Source: Actinomycetes bacterium (GTDB taxonomy: Bacteria > Auribacterota > JAJCYG01). From it: a stretch of 64,000 nt of DNA. The notes under the pieces were generated by a model. The model was not told the DNA's origin and did not search any database. It worked only from the letters and a program-made list of their open reading frames with translations. Location of the stretch: NCBI GenBank assembly GCA_029263055.1, contig JAJCYG010000099.1, positions 64,083-128,082 on the forward strand. Direction: 5' to 3'. The translations under genes were made by a program, and so were the position numbers. Shown here one piece after another: positions 2,693-59,052 of this stretch. The first letter of the stretch is position 1; the number at the start of each line of letters is the position of its first letter.

Positions 2693-4518
2693 TGGAATCA
2701 TTGCTTCTTTCACTCATTTTGATTTCACCTTTTGTGGCGGCTTGGGGCATCTTGTTGTTTTTCTTTCGCAACCGTCAAATCGCGCCCATTTTTTCTGTTG
2801 TGTTGATGGGGGTTTCTGCGGTTTCAACATTGATTCTTCTTTTTACACACTTGCATTCTGCACCGATTGAAATCAGTTCTGTCTGGTTAGACCTAGGTGA
2901 TCGTCAAGTGATTATGGGCTTTTATCTGGATCCCTTAAGTTTGCTGATGCTCGCAATAGTTGGGGTGATTAGTTTCTTAGCTCAACTTTATTCCTTAGGT
3001 TATATGAAGGATGATGAAGACAGACCACGCTACTTTGCTTGGATGTCTCTCTTTAGTTGGTCCATGCTCTTTTTTGTGGCTGCCAGCAATATATTGCAAG
3101 CCTTGATCTTTTGGGAGTTAGTCGGTCTTTTTTCTTATCTGCTCATTGGTTTTTGGTACCACAAATCAAGCGCTGCAGCTGCGGCCAAAAAAGCATTTTA
3201 CTTAACTCGTTTAGGGGACATTGGTTTTTTTATTGGAGTCTTGCTTCTTTTAAGTTGGTTAGGAAATATTTCGTTTGCTCAATTAAATGCAGAAGCAGTC
3301 TTAGCCAATCATTCTCCAACCGCTCTTTTTATAGTTTGTCTCTTAATCTTTTGTGGTGTGGCAGGAAAGTCAGCTCAGTTCCCATTGCATAGTTGGTTGC
3401 CAGATGCCATGGAAGGTCCCACACCTGTTTCATCTTTGATTCACTCTGCCACCATGGTGGCTGCGGGAGTCTACTTGCTTGCACGTGCGTTTCCACTTTT
3501 TAGTGGTTCTCCTGAGGCAATGCACTTGTTCTTATTTATTGCCACCATCACTACTTTAATCGCAGCTTTCCTCGGCTTGATTGAAAAAGATATTAAACGC
3601 ATTATGGCTTATTCCACAGTGAGTCAGCTTGGGATGATGGTGATGGCCATTGCTGCGGGAAGTATGCAAGCAGGTATGTTTCATTTATTGACCCATGCCT
3701 TTTTCAAATCAATGCTCTTTCTTGTGGCTGGGATCTTGATTCATTCATTAGGAACCAATGATATTTTTGAATTGGCTTCCAAAGGGGCCCGCAAACATAA
3801 AGTGGCTTGGCTTGGTTTGATTGTGGGTTGTTTTGCCTTGAGCGGCTTGTTCCCCTTTTCAGGCTTCTTTAGTAAAGAAGCAATTTATGATGCGTTGTTG
3901 CATGGCCCGCATCCCATCTATTTTTACTTTGCGCTTTTCGGGAGTTTCTTAACTGCAGTCTATAGCTTTCGTTTGATCTTTGTTTTAGCTTTTCCAAAAG
4001 AAGAACAAAATGCCCACCGCCATGAAGAAAAGGTCATGAACTTACCGGTTCTTTTCTTGGCAGCAACCACCTTGGTTCTTGGTTTCTTTGGTGGAAAAAT
4101 AATGCATTTTCTCGGAGCAGGGGCACATCACAGCGAAGGCATGGAAAAAATTATTGCCATGAGTGTTACAGGGTTGATCGCGGGCGCTTTGATTTCATAT
4201 CTAAACTTTGGTGTCAAAAATAAACGTGGAGCCACTCTTGGTCTGTTTGACAAAGTCCCTGTCTTAACAACCGTGATACAAAATAAATTTTATGTGGATC
4301 ATGTGATCTACTTTTTATTCCGCCAAGGTTACATGGGTCTCTCGAAAGTGCTTCATTGGATTGACCTGAATGTGATTAATGCTTTGGTCAATTTAGTGGG
4401 ACGAAGCGTGATTGAACTAGGGCGATGGACCACTAAAATTCAAGCTGGTCTTGTGCAAGTCTATTTAGGAATTGGTTTTATTGGAATTGCCTTAGTGGTG
4501 GTCTTTTATCTGTTATAG
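2692..4518 (+). CDS. nuoL: NADH-quinone oxidoreductase subunit L (antiporter-like)
   Basis: 608 aa polytopic; Mrp/NuoL-family motifs (WLPDAMEGPTPVSSLIHSATMVAAGVYL); start overlaps nuoK stop. Confidence 0.9.
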   Translation: MESLLLSLILISPFVAAWGILLFFFRNRQIAPIFSVVLMGVSAVSTLILLFTHLHSAPIEISSVWLDLGDRQVIMGFYLDPLSLLMLAIVGVISFLAQLYSLGYMKDDEDRPRYFAWMSLFSWSMLFFVAASNILQALIFWELVGLFSYLLIGFWYHKSSAAAAAKKAFYLTRLGDIGFFIGVLLLLSWLGNISFAQLNAEAVLANHSPTALFIVCLLIFCGVAGKSAQFPLHSWLPDAMEGPTPVSSLIHSATMVAAGVYLLARAFPLFSGSPEAMHLFLFIATITTLIAAFLGLIEKDIKRIMAYSTVSQLGMMVMAIAAGSMQAGMFHLLTHAFFKSMLFLVAGILIHSLGTNDIFELASKGARKHKVAWLGLIVGCFALSGLFPFSGFFSKEAIYDALLHGPHPIYFYFALFGSFLTAVYSFRLIFVLAFPKEEQNAHRHEEKVMNLPVLFLAATTLVLGFFGGKIMHFLGAGAHHSEGMEKIIAMSVTGLIAGALISYLNFGVKNKRGATLGLFDKVPVLTTVIQNKFYVDHVIYFLFRQGYMGLSKVLHWIDLNVINALVNLVGRSVIELGRWTTKIQAGLVQVYLGIGFIGIALVVVFYLL

Positions 4519-9360: not shown

Positions 9361-10271
9361 GCTCTTGGATGGGCTGAAACATAAACTTTTTTCAGCAGCT
9401 CGGTGGTGACATGTGTGTAGATTTGTGTGGTTGATAAATTTTTGTGCCCTAAGAGTTCTTGAACTGAACGTAAGTCAGCGCCGCGTTGTAATAAGTGTGT
9501 GGCAAACGAGTGGCGCAAGGTATGCGGTGTTACTTTTTTAGAGGTGATCTGGATCACGTATGTTTTAAGTATGCGTTCAATGCTACGGGTTGTAAGACGA
9601 CCCCCTTTAGAGTTCACAAAGAACGCTTCTTTAGCAGGGATGGTTTTAAATCCTTTACGAGCTGCTTTGCCTGTTTTAAAGAAAACAGCCCGGATGTCTA
9701 AGTAAGCATTCATGGCTCGAATAGCGGGCATGCCGAGAGGGCAGAGTCGTTCTTTTTTCCCTTTCCCTTTTACCTTGATGATTTCACCCAGCAAATCAAC
9801 ATCGCTTAAGTTTAATCCTGCTAATTCACTTACCCGGGTACCACAAGAATAGAGTGTTTCAAAGATAGCTTTATCTCGCATCCCTGCTGGATCATTGGTT
9901 TTAGGGAGAGATAAGAATGCTTCAACTTCTTCTTCGGTTAAGAAGTGAGGCAGTTTTTTTTCTTTTTTAGGTGTATGGAGTGAGCTGGCAGGATTGGTTT
10001 TTAAAATGCCTTCACGGACTAAAAATTTAAAAAAGGAACGGAGAGAGGCGCATTTTCGGGCAATAGACGATTTCACATATTCTTTGTCATGCAGTGTACC
10101 TAAAAAACGGCGGAGCATTAAATGGTCTACAGATTTTAATGAAGAAATATTGCTCTTTTTTAAAAAATCAAAAAACTGATTCAAGTCTCGTTTATACGCA
10201 CTGGCTGTATGTTGTGAGATATTCTTGATTGTTTCAAGGGTTTGAAGAAAGTCTTTCAGATAAGCTTGCAT
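9357..10271 (-). CDS. Tyrosine site-specific recombinase, XerC/XerD family
   Basis: 304 aa; C-terminal catalytic region HTLRHSFATHLLQRGADLRSVQELLGHKNLSTTQIYTHV (R..HxxR..Y); cannot distinguish XerC from XerD from sequence alone. Confidence 0.85.
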   Translation of the reverse strand: MQAYLKDFLQTLETIKNISQHTASAYKRDLNQFFDFLKKSNISSLKSVDHLMLRRFLGTLHDKEYVKSSIARKCASLRSFFKFLVREGILKTNPASSLHTPKKEKKLPHFLTEEEVEAFLSLPKTNDPAGMRDKAIFETLYSCGTRVSELAGLNLSDVDLLGEIIKVKGKGKKERLCPLGMPAIRAMNAYLDIRAVFFKTGKAARKGFKTIPAKEAFFVNSKGGRLTTRSIERILKTYVIQITSKKVTPHTLRHSFATHLLQRGADLRSVQELLGHKNLSTTQIYTHVTTELLKKVYVSAHPRA

Positions 10272-12519: not shown

Positions 12520-12561
12520 GTTCTTATAACATACCTGCTAATGAGTGATTGCACAAGTCGA

Positions 12562-14743: not shown

Positions 14744-15261
14744 TTAGTCTGTCCTAGTTTCTTTATAATTTTTTTAGCTGATTCACAAGCGGTCTGTCCG
14801 GTTGTAGAAACAGAAAAAGCAGCTGCTTTCTTATATAGCGGCCGTCGTGATTTTAATAACTTTTGCATGGTTTGAAAAGCATTTTTTGTATTTAATAGAG
14901 GACGTTTCTTATTTTTTGATGTTCTAGAATAGATTTCCCTCTGGCCTGCAGTTAAGCAAACCACCGTGGATTTGCTTTGCATGTCCCGTATATTGAGGGG
15001 ATTGACCACAATTCCACCCCCGGTTGAGATCACACGCTTTTTCTTCTTAAGTGCTTTTTGCAGCATGCGTCGTTCCACACGCCGAAAATAAGGCTCGCCC
15101 GAATCTGAAAAAATCTGAGCAATAGACCGTTTCTCAGCTTTCTCAATCTCAGTATCTATATCGAGAACCTGCCACTTGATCTTACGCGCCAAATAGCGTG
15201 CGACCGAAGTTTTGCCTGTTCCCATAAATCCGATAAGTAAAATATTTTCTGTTTTCATCAA
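14740..15261 (-). CDS. aroK: Shikimate kinase
   Basis: 173 aa; P-loop ILLIGFMGTGKTSV at N-terminus, size and context with aroB. Confidence 0.8.
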   Translation of the reverse strand: MMKTENILLIGFMGTGKTSVARYLARKIKWQVLDIDTEIEKAEKRSIAQIFSDSGEPYFRRVERRMLQKALKKKKRVISTGGGIVVNPLNIRDMQSKSTVVCLTAGQREIYSRTSKNKKRPLLNTKNAFQTMQKLLKSRRPLYKKAAAFSVSTTGQTACESAKKIIKKLGQTK

Positions 15262-19177: not shown

Positions 19178-20725
19178 TTATACGAAGCTTGAGCCTTTCT
19201 TTTGTTTGCCCTTTTTTTGGCTATAATACAACACTTTGTTACATGCATTCAAATAGGCTTTTGCACTCGCTTCAATCACGTCCGTTGAAGCTGACTTGCC
19301 AATGGCTGTTCCTTTAGAGGTTTTGACTCGCACAGAGACTTCGCCTAAGGCATCTTTGCCTCGTGTGACAGAGTGAATATTGTATTCTAAAAGTTCCCCT
19401 TTTAACCCAACAATGCGGTCAATGGTCTTTAAAGCGGCATCCACAGGTCCATCGCCACAAGCGGCATCTTGAATCACTTTTTTATCTTTGATCAATTTGA
19501 CAGTGGCTGTTGGAACGGTTTTGTTTCCACTTGAAACGCTAATATATTCTAATGAGTAAGCTTCAGGAATAGAAGAGATCTCATCTTCAATGATGGCGGT
19601 TAAGTCTTCATCATAGATGGTCTTCTTTTTATCGGCTAATTTTTTAAAGCGTTCAAATGCTTGATCTAATTCTTTATCAGAAAGTTTGATCCCTAATTTG
19701 TTCAAGCGAGACTTAAAGGCGTGACGGCCTGAATGTTTTCCCATCACTAACTTGCTTTCAGACAATCCCACATCAGCCGGGTTCATGATTTCATAGGTTT
19801 CACGTTCTTTTAAAATACCATCTTGGTGAATGCCTGATTCATGAGCAAATGCGTTTTCACCCACGATTGCTTTATTGGGTTGAACGACCATGCCAGTGAT
19901 TAACGAAACCATTCGAGATGCTTTCATGATCTCTTTGGTTTTGATGTTGGTTTTTAAACCTTTAAAATAATCTTTACGTGTTTTAATGGCCATGGCAATT
20001 TCTTCCATGGAAGCATTACCGGCACGCTCGCCAATGCCGTTAATGGTGCATTCGATTTGTCGGGCGCCGTTTTTGACTGCTTCTAAAGAATTGGCAACAG
20101 CCAACCCTAAATCATTATGGCAGTGCACACTGATGATTGCTTTATCTGTTGCCGGGGCATGTTCTCTTAAGTAGCGGATTAATTTTCCGAATTCTCCTGG
20201 GATAGCGTAGCCAACTGTGTCAGGAATATTAACGGTTCGAGCCCCTGCTTTAATCACAGCTTGAACTACCTGGGCCAAAAAAGCAGGCTCGGTGCGTGAC
20301 GCATCTTCAGGTGAAAACTCCACATCAGTGGTGAACTTCCGTGCATATTTCACAGAATCAACCGCTTGTTTTAATATTTCATCTTCTGCTTTTTTTAATT
20401 TGTATTTCATGTGAATTTTAGAGGTGGCTAAAAAGACATGGATCCGACGGTTTTTATTCTTTTTTAAGGCTTCAGCCGCACGATCAATATCTTTCTTTAA
20501 AGAGCGAGCCAACCCAGCAATAGTAGGGCCTTTAATCTCTTTAGCAATGGTTTGCACTGCTTCAAAGTCACCAGGTGAGGCAATAGGAAAGCCTGCTTCA
20601 ATCACATCGACATTTAAGCGAGACAATTGTTGGGCCACTTCAAGCTTTTCGCGCAAGTTCATACTGGCGCCTGGGCATTGTTCTCCATCACGTAAAGTTG
20701 TGTCAAAAATTGTAATATTTTCCAT
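19178..20725 (-). CDS. 2-isopropylmalate synthase / citramalate synthase (LeuA/CimA family, with C-terminal LeuA-dimer regulatory domain)
   Basis: 515 aa; DRE-TIM metallolyase N-terminus [34 protein letters not shown]; no other leu genes in the window, so LeuA vs CimA is undetermined. Confidence 0.8.
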
Positions 20726-25483: not shown

Positions 25484-25723
25484 TTAATCGAGTTTGGAGT
25501 GAGAGCCATCACAAAAGGGTGATCCTTGAGTGTGCTTACACTGACAAAGAGCCACTTTCTTTTTCTCATCAATTGTAAATGGGAGAGGGGTGAAATCTGT
25601 TCCTGCATGCCCGCCATCACAAAAAGGTTGGTTTTGGGATAAACCGCATTGGCACCATTTATAAGTACCTGCTTCTAGTTCGATGACAGCTGGTTTTTTA
25701 TCGGCTATTTTGGGATCACTCAT
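25484..25723 (-). CDS. CDGSH iron-sulfur domain protein (two CDGSH-type motifs)
   Basis: CQCGLSQNQPFCDGGHAG and CQCKHTQGSPFCDGSHS; likely start at the internal Met (MSDPKIADKK, nt 25723) rather than track start 25771, which would overlap the upstream gene by 56 nt. Confidence 0.7.
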   Translation of the reverse strand: MSDPKIADKKPAVIELEAGTYKWCQCGLSQNQPFCDGGHAGTDFTPLPFTIDEKKKVALCQCKHTQGSPFCDGSHSKLD

Positions 25724-29520: not shown

Positions 29521-30309
29521 ATGAAATTAGGAGAAGAGATGGTCCAGGAACAGAATAAAGAAGCCGAGCTTGCTTATTACAGACAGTATGCCCAAAACCT
29601 TGAAGGGGCAGGAGAAGACTTTACCGAAGAGATCTTTAATATGCTCTTTGATAAGTTTGGTGCTGTAAATGGAAATGGGGCATTGCTCCTTGATGCAGGC
29701 TGTGGTTCGGGTATCTATGGCAAGCGTTTGGCTCAGCGTGGTTATCAAGCAACCGGAGCTGATTTGTGCGATGACATGGTAGAAATTGCCAACACACGTA
29801 ATCCTGTTGAAGGCTTTAAAGCCATTCAAGGTGATTTGGAAGACCTTTCTCTTTTTCCTGAAAACCATTTTGATGTGATCTTTTTTGGTCAAATGCTTCA
29901 CCACTTTCCTAATATTGCTAAAGTGATGAAAGCAACGCACCACTGGTTGAAGCCAGGTGGCAAAATGATGATCTTAGAACCGAATGGTTCTAATCCTGTT
30001 AATTTAATCAGTAAAGAGATTGGCAAGGTAATGTCCTTTTTTAGCAATGCTATGAAAGCTTCTATTGGAACGGAAAATGAACGAAGCTTAGGTCACAAAG
30101 AAATTTTAGGTTATCTTGATCAAAATCAAATGAAGATCTTGCAAAAGTTTTCTTTAGATTTTCGTGTTGAAATTCCAGAGGGGGATCCGATTCCTCCGGT
30201 GTTGCGTTTTATGGTGGGCGTGCGCGAGTTGACTTATCGACTTGTTGCCAACATCCTTCCTATTATGAATCGTGGTCGCATCATGCTCATGATTGCAGAA
30301 AAAGTGTGA
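29521..30309 (+). CDS. Class I SAM-dependent methyltransferase
   Basis: 262 aa; motif I LLDAGCGSGIYGKRL, acidic post-I residue, Methyltransf_11/25-like. Confidence 0.7.
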   Translation: MKLGEEMVQEQNKEAELAYYRQYAQNLEGAGEDFTEEIFNMLFDKFGAVNGNGALLLDAGCGSGIYGKRLAQRGYQATGADLCDDMVEIANTRNPVEGFKAIQGDLEDLSLFPENHFDVIFFGQMLHHFPNIAKVMKATHHWLKPGGKMMILEPNGSNPVNLISKEIGKVMSFFSNAMKASIGTENERSLGHKEILGYLDQNQMKILQKFSLDFRVEIPEGDPIPPVLRFMVGVRELTYRLVANILPIMNRGRIMLMIAEKV

Positions 30310-30719
30310 TGAGACGTTTATCGGTTCTCTTTCTTTTAATCTTCTTTTCTTTTAGCTCTGTCCCTCCTGTTTATTCTGTTGAACGTATTGAACGATTAAA
30401 AAGTCGTGTCAAAAGAGGGGTTAATTTTTATCGTGATGGTCGTTTTACAATCTCTAAGTTGACCAAGCAAGGTTTGGGAAGTGGAGCTACTTTGATCCGA
30501 GGTTTGGTGACTAATGACACTAATCGAAGAGCAGTTTCAGTTCAATTAGAGGTCACATGTTATGACAAAGAAAGTGATTTGATTGACTCTAAATTATTTG
30601 AAATCAACTACCTTGACTCCCGCCAAACCCAACCCTTCAAAGTCCGTATCCGAGAACGCGAAGACATCATCACCTTATTCGAAGCCAATATCCAGGACGT
30701 TATCTGGGACGAATTTTAG
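30306..30719 (+). CDS. Small secreted hypothetical protein
   Basis: 137 aa; signal peptide LSVLFLLIFFSFSSVPPVYS; 4-nt overlap with the upstream methyltransferase. Confidence 0.5.
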   Translation: MMRRLSVLFLLIFFSFSSVPPVYSVERIERLKSRVKRGVNFYRDGRFTISKLTKQGLGSGATLIRGLVTNDTNRRAVSVQLEVTCYDKESDLIDSKLFEINYLDSRQTQPFKVRIREREDIITLFEANIQDVIWDEF

Positions 30720-30745
30720 TATTAGGGAAATTTAAGGCACACTGC

Positions 30746-30965
30746 GTGTCGAAATGTTTCCACAAAGGGCCGTTCCATAAGCAACTTGCCGCCCGGCAAG
30801 TCACTTATTCCACTCATACTCGGATCCACACCCAGAAAAAGTTGCCTTCTTAGGCAGGGTCTCCCTCCGGTTCTGCTTCGCTGCACCTGCGGGAGCCCCT
30901 GTCGGAAGTCAACTTTCTCTGGGCCCCTGTCTCCTCAGATGCCCTTTGTGGAAACATTTCGACAC
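30746..30965. repeat. 220-bp unit closed by a perfect 25-bp inverted repeat (GTGTCGAAATGTTTCCACAAAGGGC / GCCCTTTGTGGAAACATTTCGACAC) enclosing about 170 nt of GC-rich, hairpin-dense sequence
   Basis: Read directly: arms at 30746-30770 and 30941-30965; internal local hairpins (CTTGCCGCCCGGCAAG; ATAAGCAACTTGCC/GGCAAGTCACTTAT); the left arm sequence also forms the 5' end of the second repeat copy at 58738. Confidence 0.7.
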
Positions 30966-31010
30966 TCCGTTGATCAAGTCTATATTTATAAAAGAATATT
31001 TAACCACGTA

Positions 31011-31235
31011 AAAATAATCTGAAAGATGTTTCCCCCGAACCTTTAAGGAATGTTGCCGCAAAGACGGAGCAAAAAATGTGAGGGAAAGAGCAAGACTGGT
31101 GTCTGAACGGAGCCTCGCGCCGAATGTGCGAAGCCATTCGGACCAGAGGCGCAGTGAGTTCATTCTTGCCCTCACATTTTTTGCGCAGTCTGCTGCAAAT
31201 TCCGGGTGAGGGGGAGACATCTTTCAGATTATTTT
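31011..31235. mobile_element. MITE-like element: 25-bp terminal inverted repeats (AAAATAATCTGAAAGATGTTTCCCC ... GGGGAGACATCTTTCAGATTATTTT, 1 mismatch) flanking a core of about 175 bp that is itself a long imperfect palindrome
   Basis: Read directly; core (31046-31210) is nearly identical, a few substitutions over about 170 nt, to 58752-58944; no ORF of its own (overlapping track ORFs are artefacts of the repeat). Confidence 0.6.
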
Positions 31236-31244
31236 GGACCTAGC

Positions 31245-32450
31245 TCAATCTGAAACAAAGAACGGGTTGAAGTTGACTTCAGGGGCGGCGAAGATCATCC
31301 ATAGGGCGCCGATGCTTGGAAAAGGGAGGTTGTGTGGCCAGGCTAGTTGAGGGGGGCCAATGATGTGTGGGAATCTTCCTGAAGGGAGTTTTAGTTTTTC
31401 CATTTCTGAATAAAAGTAATTGGCTTGTTGCAAAAAGCCGAGTTGTCTAAAAGCTAAAATCGCTCCAGCCACTCCTTCAATCCAAATCGAGTTATCAACA
31501 ATGCCATCTCCGTTTGTGTCTAGACGAGGATCATACGAATAGGTTACTTTTGAAAAACCTTCTGCTTTATTGGAGCGGGTGCGGTATTGCAACATCCACT
31601 TGAGTGCCATTTTATATTTTAAAGGAGATCGGCCGTGCAGTTTCTCCGTTGCTTTTAGAGAGAGAAGAGGCCATGTTTGAGAATCAAGCATTTCAGGAAA
31701 CGAAGAGATGTCTCCTTTGCTATTTAAAAAAGCGACGGCGAAATGTTCTTTTTGCCATAACTTATCTGTTAAAAATCGAGCCACTAAACGGCCTGCTTCA
31801 CGATAGCGAATTCGATTAAGTGGTTTTTGGGCAAAGACAGACATGGCGTAAAAGGCAGCCAAGCAGTTGGCATTTGCCTCGGTATTGCGCACATCTGAAT
31901 AAGGATAAGCCTTACCCAGTTTGACGCCGCCATAAGTAAAACTATTTGGATTTTTATCTTGATGGCTTAAAAGCCAGTCTGTATTTTTTTCAGCAAGTTT
32001 CCAAGCAAGTGGGTCTTTAGTTTTTTTGTAATAATGAAGCAGTGCCAACACCATCCAAGCATTAGGGCCGGTTGCGCGGTTCCATGCTGTAATCCGACCT
32101 GTTTGAATATGAAACGCGTCAGCCCAGGGGCCGTCTTCATCTTGGAGTTTTTCAAATCCCTGCACAATCTCTTTGGCTAATTGTAGATCTTTTTCTTCAC
32201 CTCTAAGCACCAGTAAGATTAGAGCTATAGCATTGGTGTAGGTATAAGAATTATGTGGATTAGAAGGGTCTGCTGAAGAGAGTGTTAATTTGGTTAGACT
32301 GTTTTGCTGTGAGATTAACCAATCATAATCAGCTTTAAACGGATCTAAATTATGTGCGGCAAAAGAAGTCGGCGTTGGTATTCCTACCAATAAAAGAGAG
32401 AGGAAAATAAGAAGTTGTTTTTTAATTTTCATGGAAAAGGAAGGTAACAC
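31245..32450 (-). CDS. Secreted hypothetical protein (401 aa), possibly alpha/alpha-toroid fold
   Basis: Signal peptide KKQLLIFLSLLLVGIPTPTSFA; repetitive helical hairpin-like segments (NAIALILLVLRGEEKDL..., NAWMVLALLHYYKKTKD...); function unknown. Confidence 0.6.
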   Translation of the reverse strand: MLPSFSMKIKKQLLIFLSLLLVGIPTPTSFAAHNLDPFKADYDWLISQQNSLTKLTLSSADPSNPHNSYTYTNAIALILLVLRGEEKDLQLAKEIVQGFEKLQDEDGPWADAFHIQTGRITAWNRATGPNAWMVLALLHYYKKTKDPLAWKLAEKNTDWLLSHQDKNPNSFTYGGVKLGKAYPYSDVRNTEANANCLAAFYAMSVFAQKPLNRIRYREAGRLVARFLTDKLWQKEHFAVAFLNSKGDISSFPEMLDSQTWPLLSLKATEKLHGRSPLKYKMALKWMLQYRTRSNKAEGFSKVTYSYDPRLDTNGDGIVDNSIWIEGVAGAILAFRQLGFLQQANYFYSEMEKLKLPSGRFPHIIGPPQLAWPHNLPFPSIGALWMIFAAPEVNFNPFFVSD

Positions 32451-41054: not shown

Positions 41055-41057
41055 GTC

Positions 41058-58668: not shown

Positions 58669-58737
58669 AACCCTAACAATTTTCCCCTATAAATACAACA
58701 AGAAAGGCCTGTGTTTGTCGTGTACTGAATTCAGGGT

Positions 58738-58969
58738 ACACTGCGTGTCGAAATGTTGCCACAAAGACGGAGCAAAAAATGTGAGGGAAAGAGCAAGACT
58801 GGTGTTTGAACGGAGCCCCGCGCCGAATGTGCGTCTGCCAAGGGGGCTTTAGCCCTCTGGCAGAAAGCCATTCGGACCAGAGGCGCAGTGAGTTCATTCT
58901 TGCCCTCACATTTTTTGCGCAGTCTGCTGCAAATTCCGGGTGAAGGGGAAACATCTTTTAGATTATTTT
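58738..58969. repeat. Second copy of the MITE-like core: the 5' segment ACACTGCGTGTCGAAATGTTGCCACAAAG, then a core nearly identical to 31046-31210 (a few substitutions) carrying a 31-nt dyad-symmetric insertion (58834-58864), then a right terminal inverted repeat GGGGAAACATCTTTTAGATTATTTT
   Basis: Read directly by aligning the two regions; lies in the divergent intergenic region between the GT2 gene and aroC; lacks the left terminal inverted repeat of the 31011 copy. Confidence 0.65.
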
Positions 58970-59052
58970 GGCACTAGCTGATGAACGTAGCGTAACCACC
59001 TATATGTCTAAAGGCTTGAAAGATGGGGGGAGGAGGTTTATACTAAGTCATT

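Follow-up and report, generated by a model that had tools for sequence, protein, structure and literature searches.

Correia/NEMIS elements of Neisseria, ERIC/IRU elements of enterobacteria and RUP/BOX elements of pneumococcus are non-coding, intergenic, multi-copy repeats of 100-250 bp that form long hairpins, vary in their presence at orthologous sites and frequently share transcripts with adjacent genes. Their terminal repeats are conserved, and most of them are accompanied by direct target duplications. REP sequences and REPINs, with their RAYTs, are hairpin-forming intergenic repeats that are thought to be moved as single strands without target duplications. The conserved REP (about 20-25 nt) is a palindrome tagged with GTAG or CGTC, in a REPIN a short variable spacer separates two copies of one REP in inverted orientation, and the RAYT gene is flanked by that same REP. 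PATEs, derived from IS200/IS605, have similar subterminal hairpins at either end, lack terminal inverted repeats and are inserted 3' of a fixed tetra- or pentanucleotide. In retrons, a specific inverted repeat (a1/a2) closes the structured msr-msd RNA, which has a variable long hairpin. Inverted-repeat arms are also subject to a mutational process, since template switching in replication homogenises and expands them (PMC8794818, PMC8604942, PMC13100816).

The element described here was analysed in a window of 64,000 nt (the whole stretch of DNA under study). It is an inserted element, conserved, multi-copy and folded strand-specifically, and its insertion sites differ between genomes. Size, non-coding character, intergenic location, copy multiplicity, presence or absence at orthologous sites and long hairpins are all shared with the Correia/NEMIS, ERIC/IRU and RUP/BOX groups. 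Unlike these, only about 14 nt of its termini are conserved, no target duplication was seen, and its conserved part is an asymmetric interior forming a three-way junction. With the REP/REPIN systems it shares hairpin formation and intergenic position, but the conserved part is here the spacer (the core) and the arms are variable. Coordinates of all features are given in Table 1.

The unit in the window and the search for relatives

The unit, referred to as element A, is bounded by the 25-mer GTGTCGAAATGTTTCCACAAAGGGC, which occurs at exactly two sites in the window, 30746-30770 (+) and 30941-30965 (-). The first-pass annotation of this DNA had reported a perfect 25/25 inverted repeat around about 170 nt, and this was recovered as described, with a chance expectation of 0 in 100 shuffles; when extended, the repeat reaches 30 nt at 93% (2 mismatches), and 170 nt lie between the arms. 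The interior had been called more GC-rich than its surroundings, and it is (56.5%, compared with 40.3% in the window as a whole and 26.7% in the spacer on the right); the local helices that had been listed are also present, ATAAGCAACTTGCC/GGCAAGTCACTTAT in hairpin P3 and GCCTTCTTAGGC within hairpin P2. Folding gave -115 kcal/mol on the plus strand (z = -12.0 against shuffles) and -124.8 kcal/mol on the minus strand (z = -11.4). No tRNA or tmRNA was found in the window, and promoter and terminator scans gave chance-level results only, with no terminator and no conserved upstream promoter. A promoter-like site at 30959-30986 (+) (TCGACA, 16 nt, TATATT; 10/12 matches), within chance expectation for the region, begins in the right arm of element A and is directed into the neighbouring element B.

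Table 1. Coordinates of the composite, of element A and of the copies found in the related genome GCA_040960375.1 (window positions unless a contig handle is given)
Feature	Position	Strand	Basis or property
Inserted composite (L, A, spacer, B), 517 nt	30729..31245		Repeat boundaries; empty gap in L033/L034
Terminal segment L, 17 nt (AATTTAAGGCACACTGC)	30729..30745	+	Direct repeat 30729-30767 vs 58728-58766, 90%
P1 arm, 3' on sense strand	30746..30770	-	Perfect 25/25 complement of 30941-30965
Structured core, three-way junction	30771..30940	-	R1 match, covariation, strand stability
P3, hairpin	30772-30813	-	Contains ATAAGCAACTTGCC/GGCAAGTCACTTAT helix, 30777-30808
Conserved joining strand GGAUCCGAGUAUGAGUG	30811-30827	-	
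P2, long hairpin	30822-30934	-	CAUCUGA/GA(G)UAUG internal loop at base
P1 arm, 5' on sense strand	30941..30965	-	Perfect complement of 30746-30770; R1 match
AT-rich spacer between A and B, 45 nt	30966..31010		26.7% GC
Element B, different long-hairpin palindromic element	31011..31235		Inverted repeats; second copy 58752-58979
15-nt direct repeat AATGTTGCCGCAAAG	31049..31063	+	Partner AATGTTTCCACAAAG at 30753-30767
Second composite copy	58728..58979		Direct repeats
Copy c1	L028 3007-3054 / 3168-3215		Arms 48 nt, 100%
Copy c2	L028 15039-15084 / 15198-15243		Arms 46 nt, 100%
Copy c3	L028 19099-19147 / 19262-19310		Arms 49 nt, 100%
Copy c4	L049 9729-9788 / 9904-9963		Arms 60 nt, 100%

The open reading frame 30786-31022, which overlies the unit and had been taken for an artefact, has one relative among 5.8 billion proteins, designated P0001. 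P0001 is also a spurious ORF, reading through L, A, the spacer and the left arm of B in a further copy, and the differences between the two are compensating stem changes, so that the frame was rightly set aside. An exhaustive protein search with P0001 returned P0001 itself only, and its copy probably sits on another contig of the window's genome. Between the window and P0001, 8 of 15 codons are changed in the spacer and 17 of 73 in A, the spacer changing about twice as fast. The P0001 composite keeps the same arms as the window copy, with one compensating change; in that copy, the arms have thus been inherited rather than newly made. All known occurrences of the element in the window's own genome lie within the 517-nt composite.

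Contigs of relatives were reached by way of proteins homologous to TopA and to the neighbouring 401-aa protein. A covariance model (R1) was built from only three copies in L028 of the related genome GCA_040960375.1, in which the extent read (L028 and L049) amounts to about 40 kb on one contig. R1 matched the window at 30953-30758, on the minus strand only and at full length (80.1 bits, E 2.8e-13), with a 65-nt insertion at the apex of P2; the left arm 30746-30770 aligns to model positions 126-137. That a model made from the L028 copies alone finds the window unit disposes of the suggestion that the unit might be an idiosyncratic hairpin-rich spacer. Rfam 15 gave 0 matches at the gathering threshold over the window, and in E-value mode the long and short forms gave only sub-threshold chance matches and generic miRNA-precursor hairpins, the latter because of the long stem; the covariance-model search proposed in the first-pass annotation thus produced no Rfam family, and homologs of the interior came through R1.

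Four copies (c1-c4) are present in L028 and L049. Their interiors, of 113-115 nt and about 92% identical among themselves, have GGATSCGARTATGAGTG and further strands in common with the window unit read on its minus strand; the core of the window unit is longer (170 nt) because its P2 is 65 nt longer. A sixth, partial copy lies at the extreme end of L033, where the L terminus (AATTCAG....CACTGCGTGTC) is followed by a different outer arm, the conserved terminal repeat and the start of the core. In total, five full copies and one partial copy were found in three lineages. R1 had no match in the rest of the window, in L048 (22 kb, the closest relative), L051 or L052, nor in 400 kb of unrelated genomes, and none of 13 matches of the core motif in viral contigs was confirmed by the covariance model.

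The search for further arm sequences that the first-pass annotation had advised found 0 matches in 185,579 genomes and 1 chance match in JGI metagenomes, inside an rfbC-like gene. This search found nothing because the 25-bp arm is not the family signature, and the accompanying rule, by which an arm occurring nowhere else, around an interior lacking homologs or expression, would reduce the unit to a spacer, would have wrongly dismissed the element.

The nearest named relatives of the TopA protein (about 50-55% identity) belong to MAGs of Verrucomicrobiae, Chlamydiota, Planctomycetes, Ca. Aureabacteria and Ca. Theseobacter, and a genome scan based on ComM returned only relatives of at most 54% identity. 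From the TopA comparison we infer that the host belongs to an uncultured lineage akin to the PVC group, in a clade whose nearest named relatives would be Verrucomicrobiota, Chlamydiota and Planctomycetota MAGs.

Fold, covariation and strand of the core

The consensus fold is a three-way junction with a closing stem (P1) made by the arms, a long hairpin (P2) and a second hairpin (P3). P2 sits on the helix GCAUCCA/UGGAUGC and an internal loop in which CUGA faces GAA(U), where tandem G·A pairs are possible; P3 is extended via small symmetric loops. Across five distinct copies, 98.5% of base-pair cells were paired. Changes on both sides were counted at 18 of 53 pairs, compared with 6.5 +/- 1.8 in shuffles (0/500) and 2-5 in slid-partner controls, the alignment used for these counts having been fitted to the model itself. 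P0001 adds five compensating pairs (1 in P1, at 30754/30957, 2 in P3 and 2 in P2), for which the minimal nucleotide changes were back-inferred from the protein sequence. The sense strand, which is the minus strand of the window, was the more stable in 5/5 copies, by 3-11 kcal/mol. All G·U pairs of the L028 and L049 copies (4/4) are on the sense strand, and the window copy has 4 on the sense strand versus 2 on the antisense strand. Judged from these alignments and folds, the fold of the family is maintained by compensating changes and is strand-specific.

The neighbours of the copies encode a methyltransferase, an FxLYD-domain protein, ComM, NadE, DprA, TopA and DUF4380, and relative to a neighbouring gene the element may be antisense, or sense and either downstream or 5' of it. 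Going by local GC skew (+0.087 in the window, -0.047 in L028, -0.043 in L049), the sense strand is on the C-rich strand in 4/5 copies, too few for a replication-strand bias to be called.

These data also bear on the possibility that the copies are host small-RNA genes, with a stable core RNA, possibly a three-way junction that has tandem G·A pairs and binds a protein, and a closing stem cut by RNase III in read-through transcripts, as for rRNA processing stems. Such genes would account for the compensating changes, for G·U pairs lying mainly on one strand, for joining strands kept between genomes whose neighbouring proteins have only 73-77% amino-acid identity, and for the slower evolution of element A, compared with the spacer beside it, in the paralogous copy. 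Copy number, however, is uneven (4 copies in 40 kb of GCA_040960375.1, 1 in the 64-kb window, 0 in the 22 kb of L048), orientation to neighbouring genes is not constant, upstream promoters are not conserved because the arms differ, neither a terminator nor an Rfam match was found, and a stem selected as RNA should tolerate G·U, of which the arms have none in 228 bp. We regard the small-RNA reading, including its processing by RNase III, as unlikely.

A retron msr-msd ncRNA, in which the inverted repeat would be a1/a2 and the short and long hairpins the msr and template parts, has a superficially similar anatomy, since a copy-specific repeat closes a short hairpin and a long one of variable length. 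No reverse transcriptase gene lies beside any of the 5 copies, however, genomes carry several copies, and the better-supported strand has the long hairpin first, opposite to the msr-msd order, which makes this identification very improbable.

The hammerhead ribozyme, which has a similar stem order, was rejected by eye: the invariant CUGANGA ... GAAA with A15.1-U16.1 is found in no copy, the L028 copies having CUGAGCA (G8 -> C) and the window copy CUGAGGA but GAG in place of GAA, and CUGA and GAA are opposed across an internal loop instead of at a junction.

Empty sites, the composite and the arms

Orthologous sites were compared between genomes. Where the window has 517 nt between the convergent genes 30306-30719 (+) and 31245-32450 (-), L033 and L034 have 7 nt (TAA-ACAGAAA-CTA), so that the whole 517-nt block is an insertion. 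The site of c1 corresponds to 3 nt in the window (41055-41057) and that of c4 to 42 nt in the window (12520-12561) and in L048; as these sites are empty in relatives, the elements are insertions. No direct target-site duplication was found outside the arms or outside the termini of about 14 nt in 5/5 copies. At empty sites as short as 3 nt and 42 nt, outer arms of 30-45 nt cannot have been derived from local flank alone, so simple outward growth is not enough; at least some of the arm sequence must have been brought in by the element or have come from another source.

At another site, the 232-nt gap between the DUF4380 and UPF0102 genes of the window, positions 25484-25715 (-) translate by eye into a small protein that bears a pair of CDG(G/S)H motifs and probably belongs to the CDGSH iron-sulfur domain proteins. 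The CDGSH-type gene is missing from L028, where c3 occupies that gap.

The 517-nt composite consists of segment L, element A, a spacer and element B. L is common to the second copy of the composite and to the partial copy in L033. Element B is also strongly folded (-110.7 kcal/mol, z = -11.3), and its inner stem GGAATGTTGCCGCAAAG (31047-31063) matches the arm of A at 14/17 positions. The motif GAAA(GA)TGTTKCC, of which the arm of A is also made, is contained in the stems of B in two nested versions. In the second composite copy, L and the left arm of A are joined straight to the core of B, the core and right arm of A, the spacer and the outer left arm of B being absent, and B has an additional perfect 31-nt apical hairpin (58834-58864). 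The first-pass annotation had seen the left arm of A re-used at the border of the second copy of the neighbouring repeat, and it does recur there, at 58745-58766 with one T>G. The two copies of the composite differ by 296 nt, a difference bracketed by the 15-nt direct repeat AATGTTKCCRCAAAG, and the two direct-repeat families between them overlap at 58752-58766. The inserted unit is therefore the composite of A and B, of which the second copy is a version lacking the core of A.

Two suggestions had been made for the unit, a MITE subtype or a structured ncRNA hitch-hiking on a repeat, and each is half right: a repeated, inserted, non-coding family is MITE-like, and compensatory changes in a folded interior are structured-RNA-like. 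What did not hold is the 25-bp arm as family signature, other copies having arms of 46-60 bp with unrelated outer sequence, and the hitch-hiking, the 517-nt composite being what was inserted; the conserved folded interior stood.

The element proper is a terminal inverted repeat of about 14 nt around a core, with copy-specific arm extensions. Shared between copies are only the core and the inner 14 nt or so of the arms (consensus TCTCYAAAAAGGG), of which the inner 13-14 nt of the window's left arm (TTCCACAAAGGGC) are the representative, the outer part being specific to the window copy. The outer arms (outer 11-46 nt) are no more alike between copies than shuffles, a copy-specificity that was established on 4 copies in about 40 kb of GCA_040960375.1 and the window copy. 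They have no match elsewhere in the window and the collected related loci, nor in phage or plasmid collections, so that there is no sign of a spacer-like acquisition. The arms of 48, 46, 49, 60 and 25 bp total 228 bp with 0 mismatches and 0 G·T, all pairs being Watson-Crick. In L028 and L049, every inverted repeat of at least 46 nt (95-100% complementary) encloses a core, and the others are of 14-27 nt and mostly imperfect; no comparable long inverted repeat was found in L033, L048, L051 or L052.

If the unit were a classical MITE, its 25-bp arms would be the termini of a deleted insertion sequence and its DDE transposase would be encoded elsewhere. A small, non-coding, intergenic, repeated sequence closed by an inverted repeat whose inner 14 nt or so are conserved across genomes is in keeping with this, and the resemblance between the arm of A and the inner stem of B (14/17) means that A and B might share one recognition sequence. 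The absence of a direct target-site duplication at 5/5 copies and of any relationship between arms past about 14 nt argues against it, and a strand-asymmetric fold with compensating changes is not required by a double-strand DDE mechanism. No transposase gene was present among the ORFs scanned in the 64-kb window, and no parent insertion sequence with the same termini in that window or in about 150 kb of related loci. A classical MITE consequently appears improbable. IS200/IS605-derived PATEs were also considered and rejected: the hairpins P2 and P3 do not resemble each other, the element has a terminal repeat, and no short motif is common to the flanks.

The arms extend as far as adjacent genes. 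The c1 arm takes in the native last 7 nt of nadE (CAAATAA), and the opposite gene, whose end is different in the window, receives its Lys-stop terminus from the inverted copy of the arm end. The perfect run of c3 starts inside the final codons of one gene and reaches one base beyond the stop of the other. In L054 (2685-2851, JGI 3300022690), at the convergent-gene junction of the window, a 28-nt 100% inverted repeat includes both TAA stops and encloses an unrelated, AT-rich interior of 111 nt; the locus also carries an older, decayed arm copy (78%), and its right arm is duplicated in tandem. Perfect arms reaching from stop to stop therefore arise in this clade without the core. At the same junction, L053 (6768-6897, Logan SRR18502801) has a different GC-rich, nested palindromic repeat (TGTCATTGCGAGGAG ... 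CGACGAAGCAATCTC ... GAGATTGCTTCGTCG ... CTCCTCGCAATGACA). The junction 30306-30719 / 31245-32450 seems to collect palindromic insertions.

Assembly ends are also informative. The Logan unitig of L033 ends 30 nt (k-1) past the start of the terminal repeat, as expected if the sequence common to copies begins at that repeat. More generally, Logan unitigs (k = 31) end exactly 30 nt into the arms or into the terminal repeat and core (L030 at both ends, L050 at its start, L033 and L001 at their ends).

Mobilisation of the element and its significance

A gene that could be considered as mobilising the element is found in the most copy-rich genome. At L028 16999-17508, 1.6-1.8 kb from two copies, lies a RAYT-like gene whose product matches Pfam Y1_Tnp (E 2.8e-14) and NCBIfam REP_Tyr_transpos (63.8 bits). 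It would suit a REPIN-like element whose movement, via ssDNA, depends on a REP-associated tyrosine (Y1/HUH) transposase, and the strand-specific hairpin fold and the absent target duplications fit HUH chemistry. The NCBIfam score is nevertheless below the 80-bit cutoff, the window has no RAYT-like gene, and the perfect 14-nt inverted repeat flanking the L028 gene (CAGGGACAGTCCTC) has only a 7-mer in common with the core and occurs at no other site in the window and the collected related loci. Moreover, a REPIN is two inverted copies of one REP, and here an asymmetric interior is conserved. A REPIN-like element served by this type of transposase is, in our view, an improbable identification. 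The RAYT-like gene adjoins ComM in L028, and the window has an HTH_3 ORF at the matching place.

Quasipalindrome correction and the ebb and flow of plastid inverted repeats offer an explanation for the arms: they would produce perfect, outward-growing arms without G·T, arms that stop at coding boundaries, and regeneration after decay, as in L054. As a mutational process, quasipalindrome correction leaves the conserved core and its spread to new loci unexplained.

On balance, we favour a reading that combines mobility with such a process: the copies would belong to a hitherto uncatalogued family of small repeats that are mobile but non-coding and non-autonomous, of MITE/REPIN-like structured type, moved in trans via a single-stranded intermediate, with arms perfected at the DNA level, probably by template switching. 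Copies would be mobilised in trans by an enzyme that is presumably not encoded in the window and that would recognise the single-stranded intermediate (ssDNA or RNA) by its shape, the outer arms not serving as recognition sequences. The arms would then be made, extended and kept perfect in DNA by snap-back or by intra-strand template switching that is seeded at the terminal repeat, and would lengthen until they meet the stop codons of adjacent genes. The outcome for the host would be a very large intergenic hairpin, which may act as a read-through barrier or as a protector of mRNA 3' ends.

A doubtful extension of this scheme is an insertion chemistry not described before: a single-stranded core, recognised by its shape, might be joined at the target and the new strand snap back, copying 10-45 nt of adjoining DNA. 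If true, such snap-back copying would mean that each insertion makes its own perfect inverted duplication, the inverted counterpart of a target-site duplication. More speculative still, the copy-specific arms could be functional, 'programmable' duplexes on a constant scaffold.

The element adds to RNA and repeat libraries a structured repeat family that is absent from them and that comes from a poorly sampled lineage, for which a covariance model and present/absent sites are now available. Since the arms break k-mer assemblies exactly 30 nt in, elements of this kind are systematically lost from short-read MAGs, where they will be under-represented, and assemblies are fragmented. A terminal-repeat search fails for such elements and the core is needed as a probe, for which the core patterns GGATRCGARTATGAGTG or CTAGCGAACGT can be used. 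The usual rule for bacterial repeats is inverted here, the interior being constant and the perfect arms variable, and a constant core with variable arms would point either to a new mode of DNA insertion or to an unusually active growth of palindromes by template switching.
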